Source: an uncultured Gammaproteobacteria bacterium (lineage in GTDB: Bacteria; Pseudomonadota; Gammaproteobacteria; Steroidobacterales; Steroidobacteraceae). Taken from it: a DNA stretch of 64,000 nucleotides. The notes under the pieces were generated by a model. It was not told the DNA's origin. It searched no databases and saw only the letters and a program-made list of their open reading frames with translations. Every line of letters starts with the position of its first letter. Within the stretch, counting starts at the first letter, position 1. The stretch lies in the NCBI GenBank assembly GCA_963795475.1, contig CAWCIE010000012.1:324710-388709 (forward strand). The letters run 5' to 3'. Positions 20,266 through 54,406 of the stretch are shown piece after piece. The position numbers and the translations under genes were made by a program.

Positions 20266-20522
20266 GGATCTCCGCAACGGGCGAAGGAAATGGCGAGGCT
20301 TGGGAAAAGCGATGCTAAGCACTGCGGCACGGTCCGACTCGTGATGCGCGGCGTGTCGCTCTTGGCGCCAAATCGTGGCTTCGCAGACAAGTGCAGCCGG
20401 CAATTGGTGTGCGGCTTTCGTGGTGCCGTTGCATTGTATCCCTTGACGCCTGACGGCTGGTCTGCACGTGGCGCTGCAGCTACCGTAAGGCGCGGCGGCG
20501 GCGCGTGTCAAGCCGGAGCCTC

Positions 20523-20830: not shown

Positions 20831-20842
20831 AACAACTGCAAT

Positions 20843-21016: not shown

Positions 21017-21254
21017 ACCCGCCGGAGCCAGAGACCTTCGGAGCAGGTAGCCCACCGTAGGTGCGGCGCAACAGATGGCGCCGCACCTGCCTCGCGCCTG
21101 CGCCGCCGGCCCGGGGCGCGCCTCCGCGCGCTTGCCGGGCGCATTCATTACATGACCATACAACAGCAGCTTTCCAGGTTGCGCCCTTTTTACACCGATG
21201 CTACTGTCGAGCGCGCCGGAATTATCTGACCATATAACAAGCCCTGGGGACGTG

Positions 21255-33365: not shown

Positions 33366-33716
33366 CTAATGGGAATTGAGGAGGACCGTGGTATCGAAGC
33401 TTTCGAAGCTGGTCAGCACCCGCCGGTAGGCGTTCTGCATGATGCGCTCGGCGTTCTTGTCGGCACGGTGGCCCAGCAGCATCCGGATCACCACATCGTC
33501 CGCCGGCCGGGCGGTATCCTCGCTCAGCAGCTGGAAACTGAAACGCGACAGCCGTTGCATGATTTCATTGGAGAACTTGAGACGGGCGAGATCCTGTCCG
33601 TCGCCCGCCCCGACCTTGGCTTCTTCCGCCACCTCGCCGATCAAACGAACGATGAACCGGGCCTTGTCGATCAGGCCCAGATCGCTGAAGAACTCGATTT
33701 CAGATTGAATGTTCAT
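33366..33716 (-). CDS. Hypothetical 116-aa soluble protein, translationally coupled to the TonB-like gene
   Basis: The sequence begins MNIQSEIEFFSDLGLIDKARFIVRLIGEVAEE.... It has no signal peptide or TM segment. Its ATG overlaps the TonB-like stop (ATGA at 33713-33716). I recognise no family. Confidence 0.6.
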   Translation of the reverse strand: MNIQSEIEFFSDLGLIDKARFIVRLIGEVAEEAKVGAGDGQDLARLKFSNEIMQRLSRFSFQLLSEDTARPADDVVIRMLLGHRADKNAERIMQNAYRRVLTSFESFDTTVLLNSH

Positions 33717-34651
33717 CCGGCCGGGAAGAAGTCGATGGGTTTGGTCGCGGTCAGGGTCGCCACATCCTTGGCTTCGAATTTGAACAACCGGATGCGGGCC
33801 AGGAGCTTCGATTCGAACTCGGGGTCGTTCAGATCGCTCGATATCACCCGGGCCGCCGTGATGTCCCCGGATGGAGCGATGGTCAACTCGATCACCACCT
33901 TGCCTTGCAGCGCGGGGTTATCGCGGAGCGCCCGCGCATACATCGCATCGATCGCACCCTTGTTACGGGTGAATACGAGCGCGATCTCGTCGGCGCCGCG
34001 CGAGGCCTTGCCGCTGCCGCCCGCGCGCGTGCTGCCCTGGCTGCCGGTGGCGAGCGTGGGATCCTTGACTTGCGCGGTACGGATGCCGTTCAAGGATCCC
34101 CCGCCGGCGGCCAATCCCGAGCTGGTGGGCGCGCTGATGCCGCCGCTGGTGCCGCCCGCCTTGGAGGTGATGAGAGAACGGGTAACCTCGGTCACGTCGC
34201 CGGGATCGGTGGTCTTCGGTTGGTTCTTGGCCAGTTTGTCCAGATTGATGTCTCGTAGCGCGGCCAGATCGTCCATGCTGGCGAGAAGTCCGCTCTTCGA
34301 GGCCTTGACGCGAGCATCCACCGGCGGCGTCACCGGCTTGGGAGTGACCGGTGCCTTCTCGAGCGGCTTCTCCGGTTTCGGGGGAGGCGGCGGAGGCGGA
34401 GGAGGCGGCGGCTCCAGCACCAGCTGCACCACGCGTTCCGGCAGCGACTCGGTATTCACCACGCGCTCGCGCCTCGGCAGGAACGGAATGATCACCGCGA
34501 TGATCGCAAACGCGATGACGAGATTGCGCAGAATGACGCGGAAGCGCCGCTCCATCTCCTCGGAGGGAGACCAAGGCAGGTCATAGCGTCGAAAATACGG
34601 AACGAGCCCCGACGCCGCGGTGCGCTGAGCGGGATTTGCCGCGGCGGCCAT
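33713..34651 (-). CDS. TonB-family energy transducer with an AgmX/PglI-like C-terminal domain
   Basis: It has one N-terminal TM segment (VILRNLVIAFAIIAVIIPFL) and a Pro-rich rod (EPPPPPPPPPPPKPEKPLEKAPVTPKPVTPP). The C-terminus reads ALVFTRNKGAIDAMYARALRDNPALQGKVVIELTIAPSGDITAARVISSDL...FKFEA...IDFFPAG. Confidence 0.8.
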   Translation of the reverse strand: MAAAANPAQRTAASGLVPYFRRYDLPWSPSEEMERRFRVILRNLVIAFAIIAVIIPFLPRRERVVNTESLPERVVQLVLEPPPPPPPPPPPKPEKPLEKAPVTPKPVTPPVDARVKASKSGLLASMDDLAALRDINLDKLAKNQPKTTDPGDVTEVTRSLITSKAGGTSGGISAPTSSGLAAGGGSLNGIRTAQVKDPTLATGSQGSTRAGGSGKASRGADEIALVFTRNKGAIDAMYARALRDNPALQGKVVIELTIAPSGDITAARVISSDLNDPEFESKLLARIRLFKFEAKDVATLTATKPIDFFPAG

Positions 34652-35146
34652 CAGCTTGCGGCCTTTTCACGCTCGACCACCGCGAACGACACCTTGCCGT
34701 ACTCGGCGTCGCTGCAGGTGAGCATGATTCGTTTCAGAACGCTGTAGGGCAGGCTCTTGTCGCCCATGATGGTGACTTCGCGCTTGGAGATGTCCGCCTG
34801 CCGTTCGCCTCTCAGAATCTTATCGTTCTGTGCCAGCAATGCGGTCCTCAAGGGAGCGAAAACCGGCGCCGGGCTCGCGATGACGTTCGGCCACGGATCC
34901 CACGAGCTGGCCGTCCACGAATACCGAGTCTTTGGTCACCATCACCACCACGGCGGCGCTGGGTTTGCGGTCGGAAAGCGATTGCGGAATCTGAATGTTC
35001 TTGGTGTTCGGCAGGATGTCCACGTCCGCGGTATGGGCGAGCAGGAACACGACCAGAATGGTCATCATGTCGATGAACGGGACCAGCGCGAAATGGCTTG
35101 CGCCGTGCCGCCGCTGCCGGTGCCTTCGAATTCGGTAGGGCGTCAT
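34651..35146 (-). pseudogene. exbD: ExbD/TolR-family protein (second copy), reading frame broken once
   Basis: The N-terminal part is track ORF 34820..35146 (MTPYRIRR...ALVPFIDMMTILVVFLL...VFVDGQLVGSVA). After skipping one nucleotide near 34888, it continues as NVIASPAPVFAPLRTALLAQNDKILRGERQADISKREVTIMGDKSLPYSVLKRIMLTCSDAEYGKVSFAVVE (ORF 34651..34851). The conserved TM Asp is retained. Confidence 0.8.
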
Positions 35147-35649
35147 GTCGGCGCGTCCGCGAGGGAGATGTCCGGGAACAACTCAGCCTTGGAGAACGGC
35201 GGCTCGGGAATCTGGTAGACCCGCACCGTGTCCATGACCTGGACCAGGGTATCGTAGGAGACGTTCGGGCTCGGCAAGATGGTGGCGTCGGTCATCTGCG
35301 GAAATTGCGACTTCACCTTGCGCATGAATTCCGAGAGCCCCTCGAGATCGTAGCCGGTCGCCGTGTTCTCCAAGAGCTTGAGCGGCCCGGAATTGCGGTC
35401 GTTCACCAGCAGATCGTTCGGGCGGATGATCACCTCGAGCTTCAATCCCTTCGGCAAATCCGCCGGAGCGCTCGCGTTCGCCGGGAGGTTCAGCTGCAGG
35501 ATGTTGGTCTTGGAAAAGACCGCCGTGAATATCAAGAAGAACACCAGGATCACCATCATGTCGATCATCGGCACGATGTTCAAATCATCGCGGCCGCGGT
35601 GATAGCGGGCGTGATTGCGCCGGACCATGCTGGCGGATTTGGATTTCAT
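35143..35649 (-). CDS. exbD: ExbD/TolR-family protein (first copy)
   Basis: The TM helix with its conserved Asp reads ...DLNIVPMIDMMVILVFFLIF. A periplasmic domain follows. The stop overlaps the next start (ATGA at 35143-35146). Confidence 0.85.
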   Translation of the reverse strand: MKSKSASMVRRNHARYHRGRDDLNIVPMIDMMVILVFFLIFTAVFSKTNILQLNLPANASAPADLPKGLKLEVIIRPNDLLVNDRNSGPLKLLENTATGYDLEGLSEFMRKVKSQFPQMTDATILPSPNVSYDTLVQVMDTVRVYQIPEPPFSKAELFPDISLADAPT

Positions 35650-35686
35650 GGGCTCAGTACCGTTCGTCCGATCACGATGTCGATGT

Positions 35687-36394
35687 TCAGATGCTGCCTC
35701 TGGCGGCGGCGGGCGCGCGGGTCTGCGCCGCCGGCGCGGCCGGAGTCTGGGGAACGCCGTCGTGCTGGCGCTCGGTAATCGAATTCAGGAATTTCACCGA
35801 CGCGATTTCCAGGCTGTCGATCAGGTTGGTGGTCTTCGACTCGAGGAACATGTGCGAGAGCAGCAGGGTGATGGCGACGCCCAGACCCGAGGCGGTGTTG
35901 TTCATCGCAACCGAGATCGCGGCCGCCAGCAAGCTGGCTTTTTCCGCCGGATTCGCCGTCGCCACGGCGCTGAACGCGCCGATCAGGCCGGTGATGGTGC
36001 CGAGCAAGCCGATCAACAGGCCGACGTTGGCGAGAGACGCGAGGAAGTGGGTGCGCTTCTCGATGCGCGGAATGACCTCGAGCAGGCTCTCGTCCATCGC
36101 CTTCTCGATGTCGTCCCGGCGGCGCGCGCTCGCCACCCGGGCCACTCCGTAATTCAGAATCGTGGCAATCGACGCCTTCGAGTTCTGCGTGAGCGACACC
36201 ACTTGTTTGAAATTACCGGCGCTCAACGCGGGAACGAGATTGTCCCACAGCGTTCGATTGCGGATGGTTTCGCGGGTTAGGTAGACGAATCGCTCGATGG
36301 CGATCGACACGCCCACCACGAATATCAAGGCCAACGGGTACAGAAACAACCCGCCGTCCTTGAAGAAGTTGACGACCGAACTCATGAAATTCAT
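35687..36394 (-). CDS. exbB: MotA/TolQ/ExbB-family proton channel
   Basis: 235 aa with three TM segments. The region ...LANVGLLIGLLGTITGLIGAF...AISVAMNNTASGLGVAI is typical of ExbB/TolQ. Confidence 0.85.
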   Translation of the reverse strand: MNFMSSVVNFFKDGGLFLYPLALIFVVGVSIAIERFVYLTRETIRNRTLWDNLVPALSAGNFKQVVSLTQNSKASIATILNYGVARVASARRRDDIEKAMDESLLEVIPRIEKRTHFLASLANVGLLIGLLGTITGLIGAFSAVATANPAEKASLLAAAISVAMNNTASGLGVAITLLLSHMFLESKTTNLIDSLEIASVKFLNSITERQHDGVPQTPAAPAAQTRAPAAARGSI

Positions 36395-36480
36395 TCTGCG
36401 CTCCTAAAAATCCGACCCGCTAACCTTAAGAGATTCAACCAGATTCCGTAAAATCGGCTATGACTTACTTCTCACCCTCA

Positions 36481-37152
36481 TCACCGTGGGGGGGTCTGGG
36501 GGCCCGCCGGGCCCTTTGCCGCCGCACCATTTTGTGACGCGTCCGCCCGGACGGCCTGGTAATACATCACTTCACGCTTGAATTCGTCCCGGTCGACCGG
36601 CGCCAGGGCCTCATCCAGGAGGCTGTTCATGGGCTTCCCCGACAGATCGCCGATGTCCGACCTCTTCCAGGGAACGATATACATCACCTTGGGCTGTTCC
36701 CGGTCTCCGGTCACGGTAGCCGTCTGTAGCTCCAATCTGTCGACCGCGGCGGATTTCCCGCTTCCCTCGAGCCTGCCCGCACCGTCCGCCTTGCGGGCCG
36801 GCTCGGCCTTGCCGGCGCCCTCGGCCTTGCCGGCGCCCTCGGCCTTGCCGGCGCCCTCGGCCTTGCCGGCGCCCTTTGCCGACTGTGCACGGCGTCCCGT
36901 TCGGGCGGTCTCCTCCTGGGAATCGGCCGCGACGGCCTCCGGGCTGCCGGCGGAGGGAGCATCGGGCGATGTCGCGGCCCGCGGCTCGCCTGCCTCGGAT
37001 TGTGCACTCGAATGTGACGCTGATGTGTCAGGCGCCCCGGCGGGGGCCGGGGGCTGCGTCTGTCCCTCGGACCAGCGCGGTCCGGCAAATCCGGCGATGC
37101 CTATACAAGCCAATGCCGTGAAGCGGATCATCCTCCGGGACGCCATGTTCAT
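36481..37152 (-). CDS. Secreted low-complexity protein with a (GAGKAE)x4 repeat and a short ordered C-terminal domain
   Basis: The signal peptide is MNMASRRMIRFTALACIGIAGFAG. A disordered Ala/Pro/Ser/Glu-rich region follows. The C-terminus reads LELQTATVTGDREQPKVMYIVPWKRSD...DRDEFKREVMYYQAV. The ATG overlaps the upstream stop (ATGA at 37149-37152). Confidence 0.65.
   Translation of the reverse strand: MNMASRRMIRFTALACIGIAGFAGPRWSEGQTQPPAPAGAPDTSASHSSAQSEAGEPRAATSPDAPSAGSPEAVAADSQEETARTGRRAQSAKGAGKAEGAGKAEGAGKAEGAGKAEPARKADGAGRLEGSGKSAAVDRLELQTATVTGDREQPKVMYIVPWKRSDIGDLSGKPMNSLLDEALAPVDRDEFKREVMYYQAVRADASQNGAAAKGPAGPQTPPR
36802..36873. repeat. Perfect 18-bp x 4 tandem repeat (CTCGGCCTTGCCGGCGCC)
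   Basis: Four identical in-frame units at 36802-36819, 36820-36837, 36838-36855 and 36856-36873. They encode GAGKAE x4 on the minus strand. Confidence 0.9.
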
Positions 37153-37931
37153 GCGGGCTCCTTCTTCGCAGCAGGCGCCGGGGCGCCGACGCGCTTGCGT
37201 AGTTCTATCACCCAGCCGGCGACTTGTTTGTTGTCGCCCGCCAGCGTGAGGTAATGCTCGAATTGCTCGAGCGCCTTTTTCGGCTCGCCGAGGTACAAGT
37301 CGTACAGGACGCCCAGGTTGAAATACGCGGGAGCATAGCCGGGCTCGAGCGCAATGGTACGCTGGTAAGCCGCCTCGGCTTCCGGAAATTTTCCGAGCTT
37401 GCGCTCTACGATGCCGAGCTCATCGTTGGCGACGGCGTCGTCCGGATTTCGCTTCAGCGCCGCGTTGAAGGCTGCCTCCGCGTCCCCGAAGCGCGATGCC
37501 CGCAAATACAGAAGACCCAGGTTTACCTCGGGTCCCGCGTAGTCCGGGTAGGCGAGCGCGAGCTGCTTGAGCTCCAGCTCAGCGTCGGTGTTGCGGCCCG
37601 CCTTCATCAGATTCAACGCCTGCGCATATTGCTGCGCTGCGCGTTCGGGCACCGGCGCGGCAGGCACCGCGGGCTTCGCCCCGGGTGCCGTGGGCACCCC
37701 CGCGGCGCCCGGCGAGCCTGGCGTCCCGGACGTTCCACCCTTGGCGGACCCTGCGGCCGCAGGGGCGCTCGCGCCGGCGGGTCCGGATGCCGCAGCGGGC
37801 GCAGCTGCCGCGGGGGGCGCAGCGGGCGCGGGCCGCGGCGGCGCGCTGTGGCAGCCGGCGATCAACGCCAGCGCCGCGGACGCGCTAACGAATCGAATCG
37901 ACTTGCTGCTCACTGATTTCCACCTTGGCAT
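37149..37931 (-). CDS. TPR lipoprotein with an Ala/Pro-rich linker
   Basis: The lipobox is SAALALIAGC. The linker reads PPRPAPAAPPAAAAPAAASG.... TPR units follow (...AQALNLMKAGRNTDAELELKQLALAYPDYAGPEVNLGLLYL...). The start is ATG 37931 or GTG 37913, and both overlap the 3' end of the upstream gene. Confidence 0.75.
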   Translation of the reverse strand: MPRWKSVSSKSIRFVSASAALALIAGCHSAPPRPAPAAPPAAAAPAAASGPAGASAPAAAGSAKGGTSGTPGSPGAAGVPTAPGAKPAVPAAPVPERAAQQYAQALNLMKAGRNTDAELELKQLALAYPDYAGPEVNLGLLYLRASRFGDAEAAFNAALKRNPDDAVANDELGIVERKLGKFPEAEAAYQRTIALEPGYAPAYFNLGVLYDLYLGEPKKALEQFEHYLTLAGDNKQVAGWVIELRKRVGAPAPAAKKEPA

Positions 37932-40704
37932 AGCGCCCCGGGTTGAGTTGTGCCAGTGCCGCGAAACTCTTCTGCACCCACTCGTCGTAAGTGCCGTCTT
38001 TGGCGCGCGCGGTATTGACTTCATGCAGTTGGATCGCCTTCTCCTCGAACGGGAAGGCTTGCTCCTCGAGCAACACGTCGTATTGCTCCATCTCGTCCTT
38101 CGACAGCCCCTTCGGGCGCTCCGAGCTCATCAGATCCTTGCCCAGTTGGCGATAAAGCTCGGCGCTCTCGAAAGTAGCCGCCGTGGTCACCTCCGCCACT
38201 TGGTAGTCGGCCGCCTGGGTATAGGCTTTGAGCGCGGTCTCCATGGCCTTGCGCTTCTCCGCCAGGGACTTCTTGAGGGGCGCGACCAGCTTGACCCGCA
38301 TGAATTCATCGCGCGCCGGCCCCGCCAAGGTCAAGGTCGCTTTCGCCGCGAGCGCCTTGCTGCGATCGGTTCGGGCCGCGCCCGCTGCCCGGTCGGCATT
38401 GATGATCTCCTTGAGCCAATAGTCGCGGCCCGTGTAGTCGCCTGACTTCTGAGCGATCACGCTCAATTTGTTGCGCGCCTCCATCGCGGGGTTCAAGGGC
38501 TGCGGGAAATGCTTCACGAAGGCCTCGAGCATGGCGCGCGACTTCGCGGTGTTGCCGGACTTGTCGTACAGCTCGGCGGCCTGCAGCGTCGCTTCTCTTT
38601 GAACCTCGGGAGTTTCGGCCGGCGACTGAGCAATCATCTCGAACTCGACGGCGGCCTGCCCCGGATGGTTCGATTCCGAATAAGCCACGGCGAGTTTGCG
38701 CGTCACCTCTTCCTGCAGCGGGCTTTGCGGGAAATTGCGGCGGAAGTCCTCCAGCACGACGATGGCCCGGTCCCACTGCTTCTGCGTGATGAGGAGCGCT
38801 CCCGCGTCGAAATCCGCATTGGCGCGCACCTTCGAGGTTGGCGCCAGTTTCGAGACTCTGAGGAAATCGTCCACCGCGCCTGCGCTGTCGCCCGCCTTGT
38901 TCTTCTGCTCGCCCTGCTTGTAGATCGAGGCGGCTAGCCGCTCGACGATGGCCGGCCGTTCAGGGTCGTTCGCCGCCATCAGAGCCTGAGCGCTCGCATA
39001 GCCCGCTTCGGCCTTGTCGAATTGGCCCTGCTCGAAGTTCGAATTGGCGATCACCGTATAGGCGATGCGCTGCTTGCCCGCGTCGACCGGAGGCTGACGC
39101 GCCAGAAGGCTCTGCGCAGCGGCGGTGGCGCGCGCGTAATCCTTGGCGGCATAGAGATCGGAGGCCGCGCGCGTCAATACCTGAGGCACCTCCGGGTGCG
39201 TCGGGAAGGCTTGCGCGAACTTCAAGGAGCTGTCGACTTCCTTGGCGTGAATCTTCGCCTTGGTATCGCCCGAGGAGGTCTCCTCCTCCTTGCCGTACGA
39301 CACCAGCGCCGCGTAGCCCGCTTCCGCGGCCTTGTCGTTCGTTCCGTAGGAATAGGCGGTGTTCTCGTACTGCTGCGCAGCCTCGAGATATTGCTTGCTC
39401 TCGTACAGGGTGCTCGCGAGGAGGAAATTGGTGACTGCCGATTCGGGATCGTCCGGGAACGAGGTCAGGTAGCTGCGGTACCACTTTGCCGCTTCCTGGT
39501 AGTCCGCCACGTTCTTGGTGCGCTGCGCCTCCGCGTGATAGTACTGGGCCACGTCCTTCAGATTGGTCTTGAGCTCGGCGACGACTTTCGGCTCCCCCCT
39601 CGGAGTCCTGCCCTGCCAGAACGGCGTCCCGTAGCTGTAATTCTCGACGAACTCCTTTTTCCCCTGCAGCACGAGATCGGGGAATCCGCCCTTGGAGTAA
39701 GCCTCGATGGCCTGCATCTCGAGAAGCGGGGCTTTCTCGTTGTTGCGGTCCTGGGATACGAAAGCGCGGTAGCTGTCCGCAGCATCCGTGTAGCGTTCCT
39801 TCTCGACGTACAGGTCGCCGAGCCGCGCGTACAACAGGTAGTAGTACGGCCGGGGCCTCCTGTGCTTCACGAACTCATCGATGGACTTCGATCCGTCCAG
39901 ATACGAGAACGTGATGGACATGACGCGGAAGGTGTCCTCGACCAGCTCCCGGTTCGGTTTACTCAGGCTGTCGAGCTCCACCAGCGCTTTCGGATCGCTC
40001 TTCGATACCAGTACCGAATCGAGGACGCCGGAGAAAGACTCGAGGCTCCGCTCGCTTTCGCCCTGCTTGAAAAGCGACCAGCCGTGCTTGTAGAGACTTT
40101 GGTTGTAGAAGCCCGACACGGAGCCGAACTTGATGACCGCTTCGTAGGCGCTTTGGGCCGCTGCATAGGACTTGTTCGAGAACAGTATCTCGCCGCGGCG
40201 GAACTGCGCCTCGTCGATGTAATGGCTCTTCGGATAGCTCGCGACCAGCTTGTCGAGCGTCTCGAGGGCCTTGTCGGGCTGCGCGTTGAGCTCGTAGGCG
40301 CGCGCCAGCTGGTACAGCACCGAGTCGTTGCGCTCGTATTTGGGGTAGGTCTTCAGCAACGCCGAGTAGAGATGAATCGCCTCCGTCGCCCTGAGGCCCT
40401 CGTTGGTCGCCAGTTCGTGCTCGATTCGCTCCGATTCCGAGCTTTCGAGATTCAGATCGCCCAATCGGCGCATGGCCTCCTCGCGCAAGGCGGCGTCTCC
40501 GGCGTTCAGATCGAGAAAACGCTTGTAGCTCTGCATGGTCTTGGTGTTGTCCACCCCCTTGGGCGGATCGGGACTCACGTCGATCTGCTGGCTGTCGAGA
40601 TCCTTGATGGTCTGCGGCTTTTTCTGGGAATCCGCATGAGCCGGCGCGAACGCGGCGCACCATACCGTACCGAAGAGGATCGCGGCTGAGAATCGCAGGC
40701 TCAT
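37885..40704 (-). CDS. Large (939-aa) periplasmic TPR-repeat protein
   Basis: Track ORF 37885..41115, trimmed to MSLRFSAAILFGTVWCAAFAPAHA (a signal peptide). Its ATG overlaps the upstream stop (ATGA at 40701-40704). TPR-like helical repeats run throughout. Confidence 0.8.
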   Translation of the reverse strand: MSLRFSAAILFGTVWCAAFAPAHADSQKKPQTIKDLDSQQIDVSPDPPKGVDNTKTMQSYKRFLDLNAGDAALREEAMRRLGDLNLESSESERIEHELATNEGLRATEAIHLYSALLKTYPKYERNDSVLYQLARAYELNAQPDKALETLDKLVASYPKSHYIDEAQFRRGEILFSNKSYAAAQSAYEAVIKFGSVSGFYNQSLYKHGWSLFKQGESERSLESFSGVLDSVLVSKSDPKALVELDSLSKPNRELVEDTFRVMSITFSYLDGSKSIDEFVKHRRPRPYYYLLYARLGDLYVEKERYTDAADSYRAFVSQDRNNEKAPLLEMQAIEAYSKGGFPDLVLQGKKEFVENYSYGTPFWQGRTPRGEPKVVAELKTNLKDVAQYYHAEAQRTKNVADYQEAAKWYRSYLTSFPDDPESAVTNFLLASTLYESKQYLEAAQQYENTAYSYGTNDKAAEAGYAALVSYGKEEETSSGDTKAKIHAKEVDSSLKFAQAFPTHPEVPQVLTRAASDLYAAKDYARATAAAQSLLARQPPVDAGKQRIAYTVIANSNFEQGQFDKAEAGYASAQALMAANDPERPAIVERLAASIYKQGEQKNKAGDSAGAVDDFLRVSKLAPTSKVRANADFDAGALLITQKQWDRAIVVLEDFRRNFPQSPLQEEVTRKLAVAYSESNHPGQAAVEFEMIAQSPAETPEVQREATLQAAELYDKSGNTAKSRAMLEAFVKHFPQPLNPAMEARNKLSVIAQKSGDYTGRDYWLKEIINADRAAGAARTDRSKALAAKATLTLAGPARDEFMRVKLVAPLKKSLAEKRKAMETALKAYTQAADYQVAEVTTAATFESAELYRQLGKDLMSSERPKGLSKDEMEQYDVLLEEQAFPFEEKAIQLHEVNTARAKDGTYDEWVQKSFAALAQLNPGRYAKVEISEQQVDSIR

Positions 40705-42680
40705 GGGTGGGCCTTGGACGGGTCGCTCGGCGGGTTCCCGGTGCCGCCGGGGTTCCCGGTGCCGGGTTTCCCGTTGCCGGACTTCTCGTTGCCGGGCTTC
40801 TCGCTCGGGTTCGCGGTCTTGTCGTAGATGGCCGCCAGCTCGAAGCGCGCCTGAACTTGATAGGTCTCGATACGCTGCTTCTGGCGCCCGAGCTCCTCGA
40901 TCGCGATGTCCTCGAGATAGCGGCTCTGCTTGTCGGTCAGCGCGGTCAACCGCCCCTGCAGCCCGTCCATCCGCGCGCGCATCGCGCCGACCCGGTTCGC
41001 GAAGGCGCCGGTATTCGCGGGCATGCCGCTGCGCGCCTGTCTCACCAGGACCGCGCGCTTTTGCGTCTCGATCAGCGAGGCCTCCAGCTCCTTCACCGAT
41101 CGGCGCTCGTTCCATAGCCTCGCCCGGAAGCTCTCCGAAAGCCGCCAGTACATGACCCCTTTCATGAGACGCAGCTTCTCGCGCATCTCGGCAAGATCGG
41201 GATCGTCGGGATGCATGGCGAGATAGTCCTCGATGCGCTTGAGCCGGGCCCAGGTGCGCTGTTCCTCGGGCGTGCCGAGCGCCGCCACGTCGTTGGACTT
41301 TTCGATGGCATTGAGCCTCGATTCGAAATCGACCCGCTTCTGCGTCAGTGCGTCGAGATCCGTCGCCGCCATCACCGCGTCGGCTTTGGGAACCTCTTCG
41401 TTATAGGCGCGCTGCCGCGTATCGAGCATGCTGTCGTAGGCACCCAGCACCTCGCGCCAGTCGTCGAGGTTCTTGCTCATGAACTTGAGCTCGCGGTAAT
41501 TCTTCAATCCTTCCTGGAACTCGTTGGTGGCGAGCAGGTGATACAGGTACCGTGACTCCGGCGCGTCGGGCAGCGTTTTCAGCTGCCAATACCACGTCAG
41601 CGTGTCCTTCTTGTCGTCGTTCAGCAGCCGGTCGAGCAGATCGCCGCTCCTGATCTCCCCGATGGACTCGTCGATGCGCCTTTGTTCGGCGTCGAAGGAG
41701 TCGATGGCGGAGCTGTAATATTCGGCCGCCTGTCCGCGCGCGCCCAGCTGGTTGTAGGCATACGGCACCGTGAGATATGCCTCTTGCACGGCCGAGTCGA
41801 GGAGATCGCGCTTTCTGAGCGCCGTCCAGGGTACCAACGCCTTCTTGAACTCTCCGAGCGAGGAATCCGCCCAGCCGTCGCCGAGCAGCGCCATGCTCGA
41901 GAAAGGCCCCTCCAGACGCACGCGCTCCAGGATCGGCCTCGCGTCCGCGGGACGCTGCGCCTGCAGATAGGCGAATCCCAGCGCGAGATTCGCCTTGTCC
42001 TTGAGCGACAGCAGCTCCTCGTCGCGGGTCTCCATCCTGCCCACGTGATCCAGATAGCCGACCGCCTCGGGAAGCCGCCCCTTGCGAACCAGAGCCACGC
42101 CCAGGTTGAATTGCGCGTACGCGGTCCAGTCGGGCGCTCCGTGCCACGCGGAGAGGGCCGCGATCGCGTCGTCATAGCGGCCCTGGCGGAGCATCAGCTG
42201 CGCGAGCAGCATGTATCGCTCGGCGCTGATGCGCGGCTGAATCTTGTCCGAGACCTGTCTCAACGCGCGCTCGGACTCCTGCAGGTAACCGCGCTGGTAC
42301 CACACCTTGCCCAGATAGAACCACGCCTTGTTGCGCACGGCCTCGGAGACCTTGCCCGCGAGCAGCGCCTCGAAAATCTTGCCGGCCTCGACGTGTTCAC
42401 CCAGCGATAGATACAGCCCGCCCAGCAACAGTTCGGCCTCGCCTTCGGTATGAGGGAGCCGCTCGAGCTGCTGCGCGGCGAGGAGCCGGGTGATCGAGTC
42501 GAAGTAGTCGTCCTGATAGAAGTAGAACAGCACGTCGCCGTAATGCAGATCCCGGACGTCGTGGGGCGGCAGCCCGTCGGGATCGGGCTTGACGTTCTTC
42601 GCGGCAGCCGGCAGCAGCGCGAGCGCCGAGAGGAGTCCCGCGAAGACGATCGGGCGCAGCTTGACTCTTAGACCCCGCAC
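40701..42680 (-). CDS. Secreted TPR plus long coiled-coil protein (659 aa) with a Gly/Pro/Asn-rich tail
   Basis: GTG start. The signal peptide is MRGLRVKLRPIVFAGLLSALALLPAAA. The N-terminal half is TPR. The C-terminal ~250 aa are heptad-like (…LEASLIETQKRAVLVRQ...RLTALTDKQSRYLEDIAIEELGRQKQRIETYQVQARFELA). The tail is KPGNEKSGNGKPGTGNPGGTGNPP. Confidence 0.75.
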   Translation of the reverse strand: MRGLRVKLRPIVFAGLLSALALLPAAAKNVKPDPDGLPPHDVRDLHYGDVLFYFYQDDYFDSITRLLAAQQLERLPHTEGEAELLLGGLYLSLGEHVEAGKIFEALLAGKVSEAVRNKAWFYLGKVWYQRGYLQESERALRQVSDKIQPRISAERYMLLAQLMLRQGRYDDAIAALSAWHGAPDWTAYAQFNLGVALVRKGRLPEAVGYLDHVGRMETRDEELLSLKDKANLALGFAYLQAQRPADARPILERVRLEGPFSSMALLGDGWADSSLGEFKKALVPWTALRKRDLLDSAVQEAYLTVPYAYNQLGARGQAAEYYSSAIDSFDAEQRRIDESIGEIRSGDLLDRLLNDDKKDTLTWYWQLKTLPDAPESRYLYHLLATNEFQEGLKNYRELKFMSKNLDDWREVLGAYDSMLDTRQRAYNEEVPKADAVMAATDLDALTQKRVDFESRLNAIEKSNDVAALGTPEEQRTWARLKRIEDYLAMHPDDPDLAEMREKLRLMKGVMYWRLSESFRARLWNERRSVKELEASLIETQKRAVLVRQARSGMPANTGAFANRVGAMRARMDGLQGRLTALTDKQSRYLEDIAIEELGRQKQRIETYQVQARFELAAIYDKTANPSEKPGNEKSGNGKPGTGNPGGTGNPPSDPSKAHP

Positions 42681-42681
42681 G

Positions 42682-43359
42682 TCACTCCCAGTCTTTTATG
42701 AGGAACTCTGGTTGATGCTTGACGACCTTGTCGGTGATCTTGAGCTCGAGATACTTGGCGCCCACGCCCTTGTCGAAATTGACGGTGGCGCCCCGCCGGT
42801 AGTCGCGCTCCACGGGGCCCTTGCCCGTGAAGAACGCGACGAGCTCGTGCTTGCCGACTTTGAGGTTGCCGAGATACAGCTGCTGCACGCCGCCTTTCAG
42901 CAGGGCATCGGCCTCGCGCGCGGTGTAGAGGTAATTCTTGACCTCTTTGTTGTCGATCTTGAGGGTGACAGAGTCCAGGGCGAAGAAGGTGCCCACGTCC
43001 ATCGACACGTAAACGGCAACCTGGGTATTTGCCGGGAACAGCAGTTCCTCCTCGAGAACGAACAGGTCCTTGTTGAGATCGATCACGTCCTTCTTCATAC
43101 CCTGCACTTCTTGATCCAGGGTCTTGAAGTCCGAAGCCGAGCCGTCGGCGGGGGTGCCCGGCGCGCCGGCTGCGCCTGCATCGGCGGGGGCGCTTGCGCC
43201 GGCCGAGGCGGCCGGCTGGGCCGGTGCTGCCGCGGATGCAGGGGCTGCGGACGGCGCCGTATCGGCGGAGGCGGCCAGTGCCGATCCGGCGGCATATGCC
43301 CCCCCCGCCAGGAGCAACGCGCAGGCGATGATCGACCCAACTCTAGACTTGAGATTCAT
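42682..43359 (-). CDS. Secreted 225-aa protein of unknown function (Ala/Pro linker plus beta-rich domain)
   Basis: Track ORF trimmed to MNLKSRVGSIIACALLLAGGAYAAGSA (a signal peptide). The domain reads ...VAVYVSMDVGTFFALDSVTLKIDNKEVKNYLYTAREADALLKGGVQQLYLGNLKVGKHELVAFFTGKG.... The next start lies 1 nt after its stop. Confidence 0.7.
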   Translation of the reverse strand: MNLKSRVGSIIACALLLAGGAYAAGSALAASADTAPSAAPASAAAPAQPAASAGASAPADAGAAGAPGTPADGSASDFKTLDQEVQGMKKDVIDLNKDLFVLEEELLFPANTQVAVYVSMDVGTFFALDSVTLKIDNKEVKNYLYTAREADALLKGGVQQLYLGNLKVGKHELVAFFTGKGPVERDYRRGATVNFDKGVGAKYLELKITDKVVKHQPEFLIKDWE

Positions 43360-43373
43360 ATCGGACCTATCGG

Positions 43374-43880
43374 TTACTCGCGAAGCAGCTCGCGTATTTG
43401 TTCGAGGTACATGCGATCGTCGCCGCGCTTGAACCCGACGTGGGAGAAGCGCACCACCCCCGAGCGATCGACCAGAACCGTCATGGGCATTTTCGCCAAT
43501 TGATAATCCCGCCCGATCTCCGAACCCGTATCGAACATGACGGGGTAGGAGACCTTCATCGAGTCGGCGAACTCCTGTGCGCGGCGCAAGTCCTCGTCGA
43601 TGGAAACGCCGAGCACCACCAGGCCGGCGCGCTCGTACGTCGTGTTGATCTTGTCGAGAGCCCGCATTTCGCGGTGGGTGTCGCCCGCCCAGCGCGCCCA
43701 GAAATTCACCAGCACCACCTGGCCGCGAAACTCCGACAGTCGAAGATTGGTGCCGTCGTTCGCCTTCAATACGAAGTCGGGCGCTTCCTTGCCGACCAGG
43801 GACTGCGGCTCCGCGGCGGACGCCGGCAGGTTCCACGAGACGGCGAGCATCGCGCCGCAAAGAATCAGTATGCTACGCAT
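43374..43880 (-). CDS. TlpA-like thioredoxin-fold protein with a signal peptide and the CxxC motif lost
   Basis: The signal peptide is MRSILILCGAMLAVSWNLPASA. The protein is collinear with TlpA/ResA (...APDFVLKANDGTNLRLSEFRGQVVLVNFWARWAGDTHREM...). It reads W-A-G-D-T where the paralog at 54407..54910 has W-C-G-P-C. Confidence 0.8.
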   Translation of the reverse strand: MRSILILCGAMLAVSWNLPASAAEPQSLVGKEAPDFVLKANDGTNLRLSEFRGQVVLVNFWARWAGDTHREMRALDKINTTYERAGLVVLGVSIDEDLRRAQEFADSMKVSYPVMFDTGSEIGRDYQLAKMPMTVLVDRSGVVRFSHVGFKRGDDRMYLEQIRELLRE

Positions 43881-44266
43881 GCAGCCATGCCTTCACCGCA
43901 CCGCTCGCGGGCGAGTCATATGGAAGCCGCTGCCACGACACGGTCGCGAATCAATCACGCTGGTAACCCCGCTGTCCAGGTTCATGTCCTGGGCTCGAAT
44001 TCCCGGGACTGGACCGGAAGCTTTGCGCCCTCGTCTTGCAACGAGTTTGCCCTGATCAGACCTTATGCAAAATCGCACACTGCACGCCGGAGTGTCAACG
44101 CGCGGGGCTTTGCTTTGCGGAGTAATCAGTATGACTTGGCGCACATTCGTGGAAATTTTCCGCCATACGCAATGGCGATCGCATGGGAGAGTCGGAGCTT
44201 CGCGCCGCGTAACGCGTCGCCGCTGTCTCCGCCTTGAGACAGTGTTCGCGCGCCGAAGCGCCGGAG

Positions 44267-44295
44267 CTCCGTTCCGGCGCGAAGCCGGAACGGAG
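44267..44295 (-). terminator. 12-bp stem-loop directly after the DUF1501-like gene (no U-tract)
   Basis: CTCCGTTCCGGC-GCGAA-GCCGGAACGGAG begins 17 nt downstream of the inferred stop at 44312. It is followed by a ~390-nt region that looks non-coding. Confidence 0.35.
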
Positions 44296-44311
44296 GTGCG
44301 CAGACCGAGCG

Positions 44312-45977
44312 TCAGCCGGGTACTTTGCCGTTCACCAGGCTCGCGAGCGGGTTGTACATGATGAGCGGATCGAGAACGCGTCGCGCCGGACCCGAGGGTA
44401 TTGTTGGTCGGCGTGTTCGGCCAAAGGTTGGGCCACAAGGAAACAGCCGACGTGCCGTGCAGTGCCATGTAATTGAGCACGACCATCTGCACCAGATTCG
44501 GCACGTTGTTGCCGGCCGGGCTCGAGGTCGTGTTCTGCGAGCCGTCCGGATTGAAGTACCCGAGCTGCAGGCTCATCTCGGGATTGGTTTGTGCGGGCGT
44601 CGGCTTCGCCTTGGGGTCGTAAACCAGGAAGTAGGTGGCCGCGACGTTCTGATTGTCGGCGGTCCACACGCCTTTGCCGCGTCCGCCGACGGAACTGTCG
44701 ATGGTGCCGTCGCTCGCGAGCGAGCCGTCGCTGAATATGTAGATCATCACGGGTTTGCCCTGGATGGCCGCGTACTGAAGCACGGCGCCGATACACTGGC
44801 CGGCGGAGAAATCGCGGGCCTCGCCGGTCGCGCGCTCGCCCGTGTGGTAATCGAAGCCCCCGAGCTCGATGGTGCCGGCGGCGGCATCGCCGTCGACCAC
44901 GAGCTTCATGACGGCGGCGGTCTTCTGGAAATCGCTGCTCCCTTGATATTCCGCCGTCTGGAAGATGCCGCTCGAGCCGACGATATTCGGATCCAAGTCC
45001 GGATCGACCGCCCCGGGGCTCGGATACCGGTTCAGCAGATAGGCCGCCTTGGTGTAGGCGCAAGTCTGGGCCTGGACCGCGGCGGCCTGCAACGCCGCTC
45101 CGTTCGGAATCGAGCTCGCGTAGGCCGACACGCCGGAGTACTTGGCATCGCTGATCCGCTTCATGGATTCGAGCACGTTGGTCACGTCAGTCGTCTGCGT
45201 CTCCGGGTTCGGCGGATTGGGGAGCAATGTGCTCAATTGACCCGTGCTGACGAGCCCGGAAGTATCGGCGCCGCTGTCGATCGTGCTCGGCTGCGCCGCC
45301 ACGTTGATCATGCCGGGAGGCGACATGGAGTTCCCACCCGAAACCGAGCTGTCGGTGCCGATGAGATCGAGCAGCGCTCCGCGCGCGCCCGCCTGCCAGA
45401 TGCCGTACATCGGATTGTGCGGATTGGTGTTGGTGTCGTTCTGCGAGAGCGCGGGAATGATCGTTCCCGTGACCTTGGCGGCCGCGGCGGCGTTGGTGAA
45501 CTTGGTCTTGATGCCGCGCAGCTGCGCGCTGTCGGAATGGTAGCGCAGCCCGAGGGTCGCGTCGACGAAGCTCGCGGCGCTGCTGTTGGGCACCATGGAG
45601 CCCGGCAACCCCAGCTTGCTGTAACCGGCGACGCTCAGGAAGTCGAGCTGGCCGTTCGGACCGCCGACCAGAACGTTCGAGCCGGCGATATTGGCGCCGC
45701 CCGACAGGTCGAAGCAGATGAAGGGAATCATTCCGGCACCCGCCGTGATGCCGCAGGCGGTGACCGCGGTCTGGATGTCGCCAACCAGCGGCGGCTGCGC
45801 CTGCGCAATCCGCGGATTCGCCATCAGGCTGAACACCGAGGGGAGCAGCACCGAGGCGCCGCCTGTCATGAACCCCTGGGCGAGGAACTCACGGCGCGTC
45901 CTCGGCCTCGGATGATCGGGGTGACGAAGCGGCTCATTGCGGCCGAGGCCCTTGGGGATCTTGCGAATAATGCGCAT
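44312..45977 (-). CDS. Tat-exported protein distantly resembling DUF1501; a frame break near the 3' end is inferred
   Basis: - The N-terminus has a twin-arginine signal: MRIIRK...RPRTRREFLAQGFMTGGASVLLP.
- ...IPFICFDLSGGANIAGSNVLVGG and ...IELGGFDYHTGERATG recall the DUF1501 motifs (GGxD... and GGFDTH).
- Track ORF 43893..45977 turns into Arg-rich nonsense after ...NNTLGSG.
- A neighbouring frame reads (A)RRVLDPLIMYNPLASLVNGKVPG* and ends at 44312. Confidence 0.65.
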
Positions 45978-46021
45978 AGTTGAAAACCTCTACGATTCCT
46001 TGGACTTGACTCGGTCGGTAC

Positions 46022-48538
46022 TCAATCGATCATCACGTTGGCGTTGCCGAGCGCCGCGGCGCAGGCCCCGACGGTCACTGCGCTGACGCGCGCCGAATTG
46101 TTGCAGGGAAGACTTCCGCTACAGAGTGTATTCACGAGATTTCCCAGCTCAGTTGTCACCGCCGTGCCCTGGGCGCTCCCGACATTGGCGGTGCCCACCG
46201 CGAGCGCGGTCAGCGGACCTGTGATCGAGGCGGCACCGCTGGGCAGGCTCAAGGTGCTGAAATTGACCCCCGGGAAGATTTTGGCCTGCAGGGTCGAACT
46301 CAGCATCACCTGATTGCAGTACTGAACCGCCAGCTGAGCGACGCCGACCTGATTCGCGGACGAATAGGCCTCGATGGTATTCACCGCCGGCAGCTGTTCT
46401 TGGACGCTTTGATACGTCGTCACCACCGACGCGTTCGAGGTCAGCACCCCGGTGAGCTGCGAGAAGGTCGAATTGACCTGCGCGAAGCTGCGCACGCCGA
46501 AGTCCGCCGCGGGCGGCCCGAGCGCCAGCGTCGCCGGTTGCGGTGTCGCCTCGACGATCACGTCGTGCGCGGTGCCGAGCGTATCGAACTGCAGGAAGAA
46601 CTGATCCGTCAGCGGGCCGTTCTCGAGCGCGATCACCGTGCCGACGGCCGACAGGATGTCGCCCGATGTCGCGGAGTAATTAGCCGCCGTGATCGTGGTG
46701 TTGAGCGGAATGTATGCCTGGCCCACCAGCGGAATCGTTCCGTTGATGCCGATGCGCATGCCGCTCACGGGGATGCTGGTCGGCTTCGCGGTCGAATCCA
46801 GGGAGATGAACGTGGGCTGGTAGAACAGGTAGCTGTAGTTGTCGTACTGGCTCACCGTGAACATCATATAAGCCTGATTGACGTTCACGCCGGGCACGCT
46901 CGAGATGTTGAAGAGCAGGTAATAGCGCTGTCCGACGCCTGCATTGAAGTTCTGCAGCACCTGCGCGGCGGAGAGCGCGCGGCTATGGACCGCGAGGAAC
47001 TTGATCTCGCCCTGGAACGCGTTGTCGCCCGATACCTCGCTGCCGAGAACCAGCGCGAAAGTGCTGTCCCAGTTCGAGATGGTGCCGCCCTTCTGCGGAT
47101 CCGGGATGTTCTGGTTGACGCCGTTTACAAAAATCTGGCGGCCGTTGACCGGATCGTAGGTCAACACCACGTGCTGAAGGGACGCTTGCAGTGCCATGGT
47201 GGCATCCGGGGTCTGCAACTGCGGCGAGCCGTTCAAATTCGAATTGGAGCTGCGCAACGAAAAGTCATAGTCCTGGTTGGTCTGCGCGAGAGTCACGTTG
47301 CGCAGGGTATCGCCGCCCGAATAGCTGACGATGTCGGACAGGTTCGTGGCCACGACCGCGGGGGCAACCCAGGCCTCGATCGAGAACTCGCCGGTCGCCT
47401 GGATGAGCGTGTTCAGCTTGGAGCTCGCTTGTACGGTCGCCTGCGCCTTGCCGCCGCCGGCGAGGAAAATGAGTCCCCAGCTGCCGTCGAACTGGTAGTG
47501 GCCGGTCAGCGTCAGGTCCGCGGAAGGGTCGATGCCGCTGGTGTCGTACGCCATCGTCGAGCCCGCTCCCTCTGAGAACATGTACTTGGCGATGGTGTCG
47601 GCGTCGTAACGATTGGCGCCGCTGGCCACCGTGCCGTCCGTCAAGTGGAGGGCCTTGCTGACGACCAGGTTTGGATCGAGGCTGGTCGGCGTCGCCATCT
47701 TCGCGTAGGCCTGAATCTGGGCAAGCATGAGCCCCGCATCCACGGAACACGTGCTCCAGCAATTGTGCAGATCGGTGGCGAGCCGCTGATAGAAGCGCGA
47801 ATTCGTGCCGCAAGCGCCCGGACCGCTCCCGGCGACGAACGGTAAGCAGCCCGTGAAGTCGATTTTAGGGATCGCTGCCTGGTACGCAGTGACGATGTTC
47901 GGGTCCGCGAAGTACGGTGTTTGCGCGTTGGCCGGGCTCGCTTGCGAGCTATGACACTTGGAACACCACTGGCTGGTGATGTTGTTGTAGATCGTCGTCT
48001 GATACGCGGCCTGGGCCGCGCCGGTGGATGAGAAGTTCAAGCTCTGTCCCGCCGATTGCACCGGCGGAGCCACCAGCTGGACCTGCGTCGCCGATGCGGC
48101 GCCCGTGGCATTCGCCCAGTTGCTGATCCACGTGGTCAAGATCTGGCCGCAGGCGCTCGGATCGGCGAGCCAGCAGTTGTGCCCGCCGCTCACCTTCACC
48201 ACCATTTCGGAGGTGGAGGGCTGCGCGAGGTTGACCACCGTATTGGCCTGCGCGTAGGCGAGGTTCACATTGTCGCTGCGCGCGAAGTTCGGCATCTGCG
48301 CCGGCGTCGTCGCGTTGTGGCACTGACCGCAGCGGTTCTGGGTACGGATGTTGTTCCAGAGGTTGACTTCGAAGGCCTGCACGTCCGCCGTCGCCGGCGC
48401 GGGTCCCGTATAGGCGTCGGCGCTGCTGGTGGGAGCGACCGTGGGCAACGCAGAGTTGCCGGCGCCGCCGCCGCCGCAGGCGGCGAGGCCCAACGAGGCC
48501 GCGAGAATCATCATCCCGAGTAATTGTTTGGCGTTCAT
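46022..48538 (-). CDS. Lipoprotein with two CxxCH motifs (planctomycete-cytochrome-like) and a central LamG/ConA-like domain
   Basis: The N-terminus is MNAKQLLGMMILAASLGLAAC (a lipobox). The motifs are NRCGQCHNATTPAQMPNFA and WCSKCHSSQ. The LamG-like region reads ...GEFSIEAWVAP...HVVLTYDPVNGRQIFVNGV...FQGEIKFLAVHSRALSAAQV. The ATG lies 2 nt after the upstream stop. Confidence 0.75.
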   Translation of the reverse strand: MNAKQLLGMMILAASLGLAACGGGGAGNSALPTVAPTSSADAYTGPAPATADVQAFEVNLWNNIRTQNRCGQCHNATTPAQMPNFARSDNVNLAYAQANTVVNLAQPSTSEMVVKVSGGHNCWLADPSACGQILTTWISNWANATGAASATQVQLVAPPVQSAGQSLNFSSTGAAQAAYQTTIYNNITSQWCSKCHSSQASPANAQTPYFADPNIVTAYQAAIPKIDFTGCLPFVAGSGPGACGTNSRFYQRLATDLHNCWSTCSVDAGLMLAQIQAYAKMATPTSLDPNLVVSKALHLTDGTVASGANRYDADTIAKYMFSEGAGSTMAYDTSGIDPSADLTLTGHYQFDGSWGLIFLAGGGKAQATVQASSKLNTLIQATGEFSIEAWVAPAVVATNLSDIVSYSGGDTLRNVTLAQTNQDYDFSLRSSNSNLNGSPQLQTPDATMALQASLQHVVLTYDPVNGRQIFVNGVNQNIPDPQKGGTISNWDSTFALVLGSEVSGDNAFQGEIKFLAVHSRALSAAQVLQNFNAGVGQRYYLLFNISSVPGVNVNQAYMMFTVSQYDNYSYLFYQPTFISLDSTAKPTSIPVSGMRIGINGTIPLVGQAYIPLNTTITAANYSATSGDILSAVGTVIALENGPLTDQFFLQFDTLGTAHDVIVEATPQPATLALGPPAADFGVRSFAQVNSTFSQLTGVLTSNASVVTTYQSVQEQLPAVNTIEAYSSANQVGVAQLAVQYCNQVMLSSTLQAKIFPGVNFSTLSLPSGAASITGPLTALAVGTANVGSAQGTAVTTELGNLVNTLCSGSLPCNNSARVSAVTVGACAAALGNANVMID

Positions 48539-48540
48539 GA

Positions 48541-52966: not shown

Positions 52967-53020
52967 CTCAGCCGTAAGCGTATGAACTGATGCGACGTTC
53001 TGCTTGGGCTCATTCTGCTG

Positions 53021-54369: not shown

Positions 54370-54406
54370 GTTGTCTCTGTCAATGGACCAGTATCAGGAG
54401 ATTTTC

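Follow-up and report, generated by a model that had tools for sequence, protein, structure and literature searches.

Positions 33366-43880 of the DNA analysed here (the window, 64,000 nucleotides of contig CAWCIE010000012.1 from an uncultured gammaproteobacterium of the family Steroidobacteraceae) carry a cluster of eleven minus-strand genes, P1 to P11, that is probably an orthologue of the Agl-Glt “core complex”, a relative of the gliding machinery of Myxococcus xanthus. The cluster would form one operon, with ten conserved genes and a lineage-restricted eleventh, led by a class I riboswitch for cyclic di-guanosine monophosphate (c-di-GMP). The analysis shows directly which genes are present and in what order, to which families they belong, how far the cluster is conserved among genomes, and that a riboswitch aptamer is present and itself conserved. 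In the core-complex passages of Luciano et al. (2011, PLoS Genet 7:e1002268; PMC3169522), 14 gliding genes are divided into two groups, with Group A found only in Myxococcales and Bdellovibrionales. Group B, the “core complex”, comprises aglR, aglQ, aglS, gltC, gltD, gltE and gltG, clustered with one extra gene, and is reported there for several Gammaproteobacteria, Geobacter, Fibrobacter and one betaproteobacterium; its function is given as unknown and the core genes alone as insufficient for motility. The papers found, from 2011 to 2020, still give the function of the core in non-gliding bacteria as unknown, with speculation on basal transport or secretion. The cluster is an additional member of this known, functionally unsolved system and not a different kind of system.

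The genes follow the order, and approach the sizes, of Mpe_A1224-A1231 of Methylibium petroleiphilum as listed in Table S3 of PMC3169522 (Table 1). In both clusters an extra gene lies between gltE and aglR; its tag in Methylibium, A1227, is skipped in the published table and no size is listed, and it takes the same place as P6, which going by this position is the published “additional gene”. The original prediction had pointed to comparative work on such clusters in non-gliding bacteria, and Luciano et al. (2011) is that work. The parallel drawn with the Agl-Glt core also stands, as gene order, sizes, the AgmX/PglI-type domain and the TolQ/TolR-type motor agree with the published table and passages. 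Compared with these core-complex passages, loci of the window type add a riboswitch leader, P1 and P2 at the 5' end, the 116-amino-acid (aa) gene P11 and a recurrent neighbourhood; Steroidobacteraceae are not in the 2011 core-complex genome set as presented there.

Eleven minus-strand open reading frames (ORFs) in a translationally coupled unit had been described. The six-frame ORF list returns ten of them as described, and the second ExbD-family gene (P9) is not one ORF in the window. The ATGA overlaps at 40701-40704, 37149-37152, 35143-35146 and 33713-33716 read exactly so in the sequence, and the TGATG overlap lies at 34649-34653. P4 and P5 overlap by 29 nt (alternative starts of P5 lie at 37931 and 38024), and gaps of 14 nt (P1-P2), 1 nt (P2-P3), 86 nt (P6-P7) and 37 nt (P7-P8) separate the other genes. 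Inside the unit, a consensus scan of the coding strand found no strong-stemmed site resembling an intrinsic terminator. Downstream, 51 nt separate P11 from ppc, which is not consistently linked to the cluster in other genomes.

A scan of a genome collection found relatives in at least 593 genomes, and the best 80 loci were analysed by tblastn of all window proteins. Most of these loci bear the label Steroidobacteraceae, Woeseiaceae or unclassified Gammaproteobacteria/Proteobacteria, and among them is the cultured strain Peristeroidobacter agariperforans KA5-B (L058). Close homologues in NCBI are named after Steroidobacteraceae metagenome-assembled genomes, and on these labels the host is a gammaproteobacterium and not a myxobacterium. 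P1 to P10 keep the same order and strand in essentially all of about 70 loci with enough flank, down to 45% GltD identity, so that the conserved neighbourhood extends well beyond exbB-exbD-tonB. In three distant loci (L087, L088 and L089, 36-43% GltD identity) the order is P2-gltC-gltD-gltE-P6-aglR-aglQ-aglS-gltG; P2 to P10 are complete in L087 and L088, and the run of L089 ends after gltD and P6. At E<1e-30 the P4 family alone yields 1344 cluster representatives (clustered at 50% identity), with many full-length matches of 37-80% identity. The ORFs without a family also have many homologues, more than 8000 for P2 and 794 for P6. P11, which has no signal peptide, has an orthologue in 41 loci, all of the Steroidobacteraceae type, whereas P10 has one in 63; the Woeseiaceae-type and more distant loci examined gave no P11 orthologue, and on this distribution P11 is a lineage-restricted accessory gene. 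In one locus (L085) a second, tandem paralogous cluster, P2'-gltC'-gltD', directly follows the first (region 16576-22200). In L087, genes for DUF4266 and DUF3570 proteins lie between the TlpA-like gene and P2 (8038-9409); the DUF3570 product, with a faint Porin_4 match, is a possible outer-membrane barrel, and the three genes for thioredoxin, DUF4266 and DUF3570 look like an insertion in the cluster.

The leader of the operon carries the single match above the gathering score in the Rfam scan of the window. This is the c-di-GMP-I (GEMM-I) aptamer RF01051, which scores 57.1 bits (gathering score 35, E 1.6e-8) over model positions 1-87 of 87. c-di-GMP is a signal for surface-attached versus free-living life, and the c-di-GMP-I class is typified by Vc2 of Vibrio cholerae. 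The segments GGCAAA, CGCAAAG and UUACC, which we take from the Vc2 crystal structures to hold the ligand contacts G20, A47 and C92, are invariant in 18 orthologous leaders, and the window keeps the GCAA (GNRA) tetraloop. The 5'-leader location, the ligand-contact nucleotides and the tetraloop are thus as in RF01051; the window differs from the Vc2/RF01051 type in the distal hairpin P2 of the RNA, where a long variable insertion gives 33 nt for 17 consensus positions. In the alignment of the 18 leaders 96.8% of cells are paired, with compensatory double changes at three pairs of the first hairpin. A covariance model built from these leaders detects the element at E<1e-7 in 27 of 76 loci, among them some with GltD only 47-50% identical; with the single exception of L084, it stands immediately upstream of P1. 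The orthologous leaders reach 56.7-81.3 bits in Rfam, with the cultured strain and two further loci (L054, L055) at 77-81. The second cluster of L085 has its own c-di-GMP-I aptamer (16576-16662, 79.9 bits) directly before P2', and this is a second, independent association of a c-di-GMP-I riboswitch with a Glt-core-type operon. The GGC-variant model RF03167 was set aside for the window (56.2 versus 59 bits), which carries the canonical A where the variant differs and clears the RF01051 threshold; some orthologous leaders score slightly higher with the variant model despite their canonical A. A literature search of incomplete coverage found no paper linking a c-di-GMP riboswitch to Glt-core clusters.

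On the opposite side of the aptamer from P1, the ORF U1 runs across the riboswitch in the window. Its conserved part ends at about residue 530-545 and its tail is Arg-rich and junk-like; small indels distinguish the four near-identical contigs near the end of U1 (~44310-44380). The 694-aa ORF looks like a read-through artefact, with a stop missed through an assembly indel like that in P9, and the aptamer would therefore be intergenic. A sub-threshold match to Rfam ncS037, a Burkholderia small RNA, lies at 44191-44287 on the plus strand (22 bits, gathering score 112, E 0.16); it coincides in part with a GC-rich inverted repeat just beyond where U1 probably ends and is most likely only a terminator-like hairpin.

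The motor genes P7 to P9 had been labelled ExbB and ExbD. At the level of Pfam the label holds, with MotA_ExbB matching P7 (1.7e-23) and ExbD matching both P8 (9e-17) and the intact version of P9 from contig L002 (5.3e-14), but equivalog scores and PDB relatives are nearer to TolQ and TolR. P7 scores 53.4 bits against the NCBIfam TolQ equivalog (cut-off 221) and 25.9 against ExbB TIGR02797 (cut-off 206); for the ExbD family proteins the TolR equivalog gives 38.2 bits (cut-off 127) and the ExbD equivalogs at most 33 (cut-offs 123-216). Since every ExbB, ExbD, TolQ and TolR equivalog cut-off is far from reached, the Tol models score highest and the only solved relatives of P7 in the PDB search are TolQ structures, the motor is, on these scores, a separate subfamily nearer to TolQR, as the literature describes AglRQS. 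The transmembrane Asp is kept in both paralogues, as PMIDMM in P8 and PFIDMM in P9. The NCBIfam scan, at E up to 10, returned no model specific to GltC, GltD or AglRQS.

P3, P4 and P5 make up the tetratricopeptide repeat (TPR) part of the operon. TPR families match P3 at residues 85-255, and its helical, charged C-terminal half matches no family; at the very C-terminus a 15-nt-period in-frame tandem repeat (40746-40800) encodes a low-complexity GN/GT-rich tail. P4 passes the YbgF/CpoB-type TPR model TIGR02795 (108 bits, cut-off 90.1), with YfiO/BamD also matching, and its homologues carry the JGI name “TolA-binding protein”. In some genomes, such as L087, homologues of P3 and P4 are fused in proteins of ~1500 aa, and such GltC-GltD fusions support a physical association of the two. 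TPR families also match P5. The TPR content, sizes and positions of the three proteins correspond to those of Mpe_A1224-A1226 in the published table.

Is the cluster then a second Tol-Pal-like envelope system, in which the CpoB-like TPR proteins, the TolB-like propeller V1 and the barrel V3 stabilise or remodel the outer membrane, for instance in biofilm growth, instead of transporting or displaying a cargo? The resemblance to Tol-Pal is considerable: TolQ and TolR are the closest solved and curated relatives of the motor, P4 has a TPR region of CpoB/YbgF type, the transducer P10 is TolA/TonB-like with a proline-rich spacer, and V1, with PD40 repeats and weak TolB matches, recurs with V3 beside the cluster. 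However, TolQ and TolR scores fall far below their cut-offs, and the operon has two TolR paralogues and is devoid of a Pal-type peptidoglycan-binding lipoprotein, TolB and YbgC; the tol genes lie elsewhere in relatives. In L088, yebC-ruvCAB and then a canonical ybgC-tolQ-tolR-tolA set directly follow the Glt-core cluster (17094-22847), so the Glt-core motor is additional to Tol-Pal in that genome and the cluster is not Tol-Pal itself. Published phylogenies, moreover, place the core-complex homologues with Agl-Glt. A Tol-Pal-like role, which overlaps in mechanism with an Agl-Glt core and differs from it only in output, is improbable.

P10 consists of an N-terminal cytoplasmic motif, one transmembrane helix, a poly-Pro rod and a C-terminal domain. 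The poly-Pro run of 11 residues is encoded by a 9-nt-period in-frame tandem repeat (34379-34411). The C-terminus had been predicted to be of the AgmX/PglI type, and NF033768 gives 62.2 bits against a cut-off of 40, above the TonB C-terminal models: the generic model TIGR01352 gives 31 bits, just over its cut-off of 27.1, and Pfam TonB_C 20.7, under its cut-off of 24.6. The GltG model NF033760 matches with 39 bits at the C-terminus only, and the PDB search with P10 returned nothing meaningful. An N-terminal R..LPW motif is common to P10 and its orthologues (YYRxY[DE]LPW in many of them), and the His of the transmembrane helix is missing from P10 and its 63 orthologues.

These scores also bear on a specialised Ton system, in which ExbB-ExbD-ExbD-TonB would drive uptake through a TonB-dependent outer-membrane receptor encoded elsewhere, with the TPR proteins as accessories in the manner of TtpD-type proteins in Vibrio TonB2 clusters. 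Such a system would account for the Pfam families of P7 to P9, for the passing of TIGR01352 by P10 and for a TonB-dependent receptor gene found ~10 kb downstream in the source contigs. Against it, the motor stays under the ExbB and ExbD equivalog cut-offs, P7 finds TolQ and not ExbB among solved structures, and P10, best matched by AgmX/PglI, under the Pfam TonB_C cut-off and without the transmembrane His (SHLS), does not behave in its model scores as a canonical iron-uptake TonB. The unit had been said to contain no TonB-dependent receptor, siderophore or Tol-Pal gene, and Pfam and NCBIfam scans of its proteins bear this out; neither does the conserved ten-gene unit hold a receptor, siderophore or iron gene inside it in any locus examined. 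A Ton function is very improbable.

The likeness to the Agl-Glt machinery of M. xanthus lies in the proton-driven TolQR-type motor, the two TolR paralogues, the transducer with an AgmX/PglI domain and the large TPR proteins. The differences are also clear: the window proteins are shorter (GltD 939 versus ~1218 aa, GltE 254 versus ~475-500, the GltG-like protein 312 versus ~640-680 and missing the FHA domain), the genes form a single cluster and not three loci (G1, G2 and M1), and the operon has neither the Group A genes gltA, B, F, H, I, J and K nor AglZ/MglA coupling. A working gliding machine, with the bacterium gliding like Myxococcus, is unlikely, and the least favoured of the alternatives: the core parts list is common to Agl-Glt, the OMP_myx_plus barrel V3 of GltA/B size lies nearby and c-di-GMP control fits surface behaviour, but the core passages of PMC3169522 describe the core as insufficient for motility, GltF, H, I, J, K, AglZ and MglA have no match among the proteins scanned (30.6-61.8 kb of the window), and the FHA domain of myxobacterial GltG is missing from P10.

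What do the genes outside the published core add? P2 combines a signal peptide and a linker rich in Ala and Pro with a domain of ~150 aa that is strongly conserved and predicted as a helix plus a beta-sandwich. With 52-95% identity across loci it is the best-conserved non-motor protein, and this conservation marks it as an integral component and no mere passenger. It has no Pfam match, the NCBIfam model FEA1_rel_lipo is sub-threshold (18.9 versus 250 bits), and a PDB profile search with the P2 family found no match. An AlphaFold2 model from a shallow alignment has a predicted local distance difference test (pLDDT) score of 54, and Foldseek against the PDB gives only generic Ig-like or CBM-like beta-sandwiches at E >0.01, so that the model was treated as uninformative. 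P6, found between gltE and aglR in all loci, carries a signal or anchor sequence. Its low-complexity linker contains a GAGKAE repeat that varies, and ~65 aa at the C-terminus form a conserved motif (the window reads TGDREQPKVMYIVPWK, most orthologues TGN[RQ]ELPKV[LM]YIVPWK); the AlphaFold2 model of the C-terminal domain, at pLDDT 58 and mostly coil plus one helix, is not usable. The number of GAGKAE units differs even among near-identical contigs, with four in the window and in L002, three in L001 and two in L003. Neither P2 nor P6 nor P11 reaches the cut-off of any Pfam or NCBIfam model.

P1 matches Pfam AhpC-TSA (1.5e-24) and Redoxin (1.1e-22). It was said to lack CxxC, and the window indeed reads FWARWAGDTHRE, with WAGDT where WCxxC is expected. 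Orthologues in the same position beyond the window clade retain WCxxC, which is lost only at GltD identities of 63% or more to the window. The GltG C-terminal domain has a single conserved Cys (TIAPSGEVTxC[RE]VVSSEL), replaced by Ala267 in the window P10 (~33851-33853). The CxxC of P1 (residues ~60-68, ~43680-43700) and this Cys are both lost in the window clade and both kept in most other lineages, and three loci (L039, L044 and L056) keep CxxC without the Cys of the GltG domain. The co-loss is essentially one phylogenetic event and serves as a lead for a thiol link, not as evidence of one.

P9 is split in the window between two frames, with 108 N-terminal codons at 34820-35146 and 66 C-terminal codons at 34651-34851. 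Five copies from near-identical metagenome contigs were compared (99% mean column identity). The window has one extra A at ~34886/34887 (GCCGAACGTC in the window, GCCGACGTC in near-identical contigs); the extra base is missing from L001, L002 and L006, all three of which encode an intact ExbD-family protein of 164 aa. Scattered single-base indels occur throughout these contigs: L001 has a split P4, L004 several broken genes, and L003 one additional C in its P9 gene. Because the near-identical contigs show such random indels, the likeliest explanation of the frameshift is an assembly error, and a strain-specific pseudogene is less likely. Programmed frameshifting was rejected, as the extra base is missing from near-identical contigs.

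Upstream of the cluster and in its orientation, U1, U2 and U3 (44312-49824 with U1 taken without its read-through tail) lie beside it, as they do in Steroidobacteraceae loci and in the distant loci L087 and L089, and the block V1 to V4 diverges from it (Table 1). In L087 and L088 the genes of this block lie directly upstream of P2 and gltC and on one strand with them, in the order propeller, SH3 protein, barrel, (redoxin). V3, the only candidate Group A gene among the proteins scanned, is a candidate GltA/B-like outer-membrane partner that the 2011 survey does not list, because the OmpA-like barrels GltA and GltB of M. xanthus (256 and 275 aa) bind GltC (PMC4488436). The neighbourhood genes, which recur beside Glt-core clusters in the distant L087, L088 and L089, may belong to the same machine as the cluster. 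A few kb beyond this neighbourhood lie genes for a glycerophosphodiester phosphodiesterase (57215-58180, minus strand) and for a Ser/Thr protein kinase of 777 aa whose C-terminal part contains TPRs (59501-61834, plus strand).

Table 1. Features of the Glt-core-type cluster and its neighbourhood in the window, with the Methylibium petroleiphilum counterparts listed in Table S3 of PMC3169522
Feature	Position	Strand	Size (aa)	Description	M. petroleiphilum counterpart
P11	33366-33716	minus	116	overlaps P10 by ATGA, no family	
P10	33713-34651	minus	312	GltG-like TonB-type transducer	Mpe_A1231, 371 aa (GltG)
P9	34651-35146	minus	164 (intact form, relatives)	AglS-like TolR/ExbD paralogue 2; frame-split in window	Mpe_A1230, 163 aa (AglS)
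P8	35143-35649	minus	168	AglQ-like TolR/ExbD paralogue 1	Mpe_A1229, 170 aa (AglQ)
P7	35687-36394	minus	235	AglR-like, TolQ/ExbB family	Mpe_A1228, 217 aa (AglR)
P6	36481-37152	minus	223	extra gene of published core complex, by position	A1227 (tag skipped, size not listed)
GAGKAE-encoding repeat in P6	36764-36875	minus		18-nt tandem repeat (Tandem Repeats Finder, TRF: period 18, 6.2 copies)	
P5	37149-37913	minus	254	GltE-like TPR outer-membrane lipoprotein, lipobox LIAGC	Mpe_A1226, 243 aa (GltE, MXAN_4869)
P4	37885-40704	minus	939	GltD-like periplasmic TPR protein	Mpe_A1225, 941 aa (GltD, MXAN_4870)
P3	40701-42680	minus	659	GltC-like periplasmic TPR protein, GTG start	Mpe_A1224, 634 aa (GltC, MXAN_2541)
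P2	42682-43359	minus	225	secreted, matches no family	
P1	43374-43880	minus	168	secreted TlpA/ResA-like thioredoxin-fold protein	
c-di-GMP-I (GEMM-I) aptamer	43959-44061	minus		RF01051; 78 nt upstream of P1 ATG	
U1	43893-45977	minus	694	ORF with Tat-type signal RREFLAQG; probable read-through at its end	
U2	46022-48556	minus		lipoprotein, LamG (Pfam Laminin_G_3), two CxxCH motifs	
U3	48541-49824	minus	427		
V1-V4 block	50135-54910	plus		divergent from cluster	
V1		plus	943	PD40/HZS_alpha beta-propeller, weak TolB matches	
V2		plus	150	part of the V1-V4 block	
V3	53488-54369	plus	293	outer-membrane beta-barrel, TIGR04565 OMP_myx_plus 156 bits (cut-off 60)	
V4	54371-54910	plus		TlpA-like redoxin, intact WCGPC, 10.5 kb away	

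TolQR, ExbBD and AglRQS motors are 5:2 stators. By analogy, the TolQ-like P7 and the TolR-like P8 and P9, both with their Asp, would form a proton-driven stator of the 5:2 type in the inner membrane, which would move the single transmembrane helix of P10; the M. xanthus proteins AglR and GltG interact. P10 would reach across the periplasm with its poly-Pro rod, and its AgmX/PglI-type domain would engage a TPR scaffold anchored in the outer membrane. This scaffold may consist of P3, P4 and the lipoprotein P5, tied to the outer membrane through P5 and, as the GltC-GltD fusions suggest, held together as one assembly. P10 would most obviously contact the CpoB-like modules of P4, by analogy with TolA and CpoB, and P2, P6 and the TlpA-like P1 could serve as conserved periplasmic accessories. 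Energy from the inner membrane would in this way be delivered to an outer-membrane or surface component, and through the riboswitch the making of the machine would depend on c-di-GMP. As its output, we consider it most likely that proton flow powers an effect on some component of the outer membrane or the cell surface while the cells live attached to surfaces.

Several points weigh against an Agl-Glt core operon under riboswitch control. P10 is devoid of the His/SHLS motor-contact motif of TonB and TolA and of the FHA domain of myxobacterial GltG. The GltC, GltD and GltE assignments of P3, P4 and P5 rest on synteny, size and the published table; the GltE model NF033758 gives P5 47 bits against a cut-off of 225, which the PrsT model equals and other TPR models match. 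The structure predictions for P2 and P6 are of low confidence, an internal promoter could lie in the 86 nt that separate P6 from P7, and the P9 indel, if real, could cripple the machine in the window strain. About two thirds of the related loci, including all of the Woeseiaceae type and one Steroidobacteraceae subclade, are without the aptamer, so c-di-GMP control would be lineage-specific. In its minimum-free-energy fold the leader is indistinguishable from shuffled sequences (z = -0.03), and neither the folds of downstream segments nor the leader alignment gave a consistent terminator or anti-Shine-Dalgarno structure, although some orthologues have a GC-rich hairpin with a weak U-run downstream of the aptamer.

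A broader, rather unlikely version of the Agl-Glt assignment makes the operon only the energising half of a machine of ~20 genes under c-di-GMP riboswitch control. Its motor and TPR scaffold would work through V3 to display, secrete or move envelope proteins encoded nearby, with the LamG/di-haem lipoprotein U2, U1 and V1 as candidates and with the TlpA-like oxidoreductase acting on the Cys of the GltG domain, both lost together in the window clade. If true, it would reveal the long-sought ancestral function other than motility, in which proton flow drives the exposure of an adhesin or redox protein at the cell surface.

Both the gliding machine of myxobacteria and the Nfs spore-coat machine evolved from the core complex. 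For this family the riboswitch is a regulatory input that would make the machine part of the change between attached and planktonic growth, and it offers a first testable clue to its purpose. The parts list is enlarged by the TlpA-like protein, P2, P6 and neighbours including the OMP_myx_plus barrel, possibly the missing outer-membrane partner. As the cultured Peristeroidobacter agariperforans KA5-B carries both riboswitch and cluster, it provides an experimentally tractable host, and with more than 1300 representatives of 50%-identity clusters in the GltD-like family any function found there would apply widely among soil and sediment Gammaproteobacteria.

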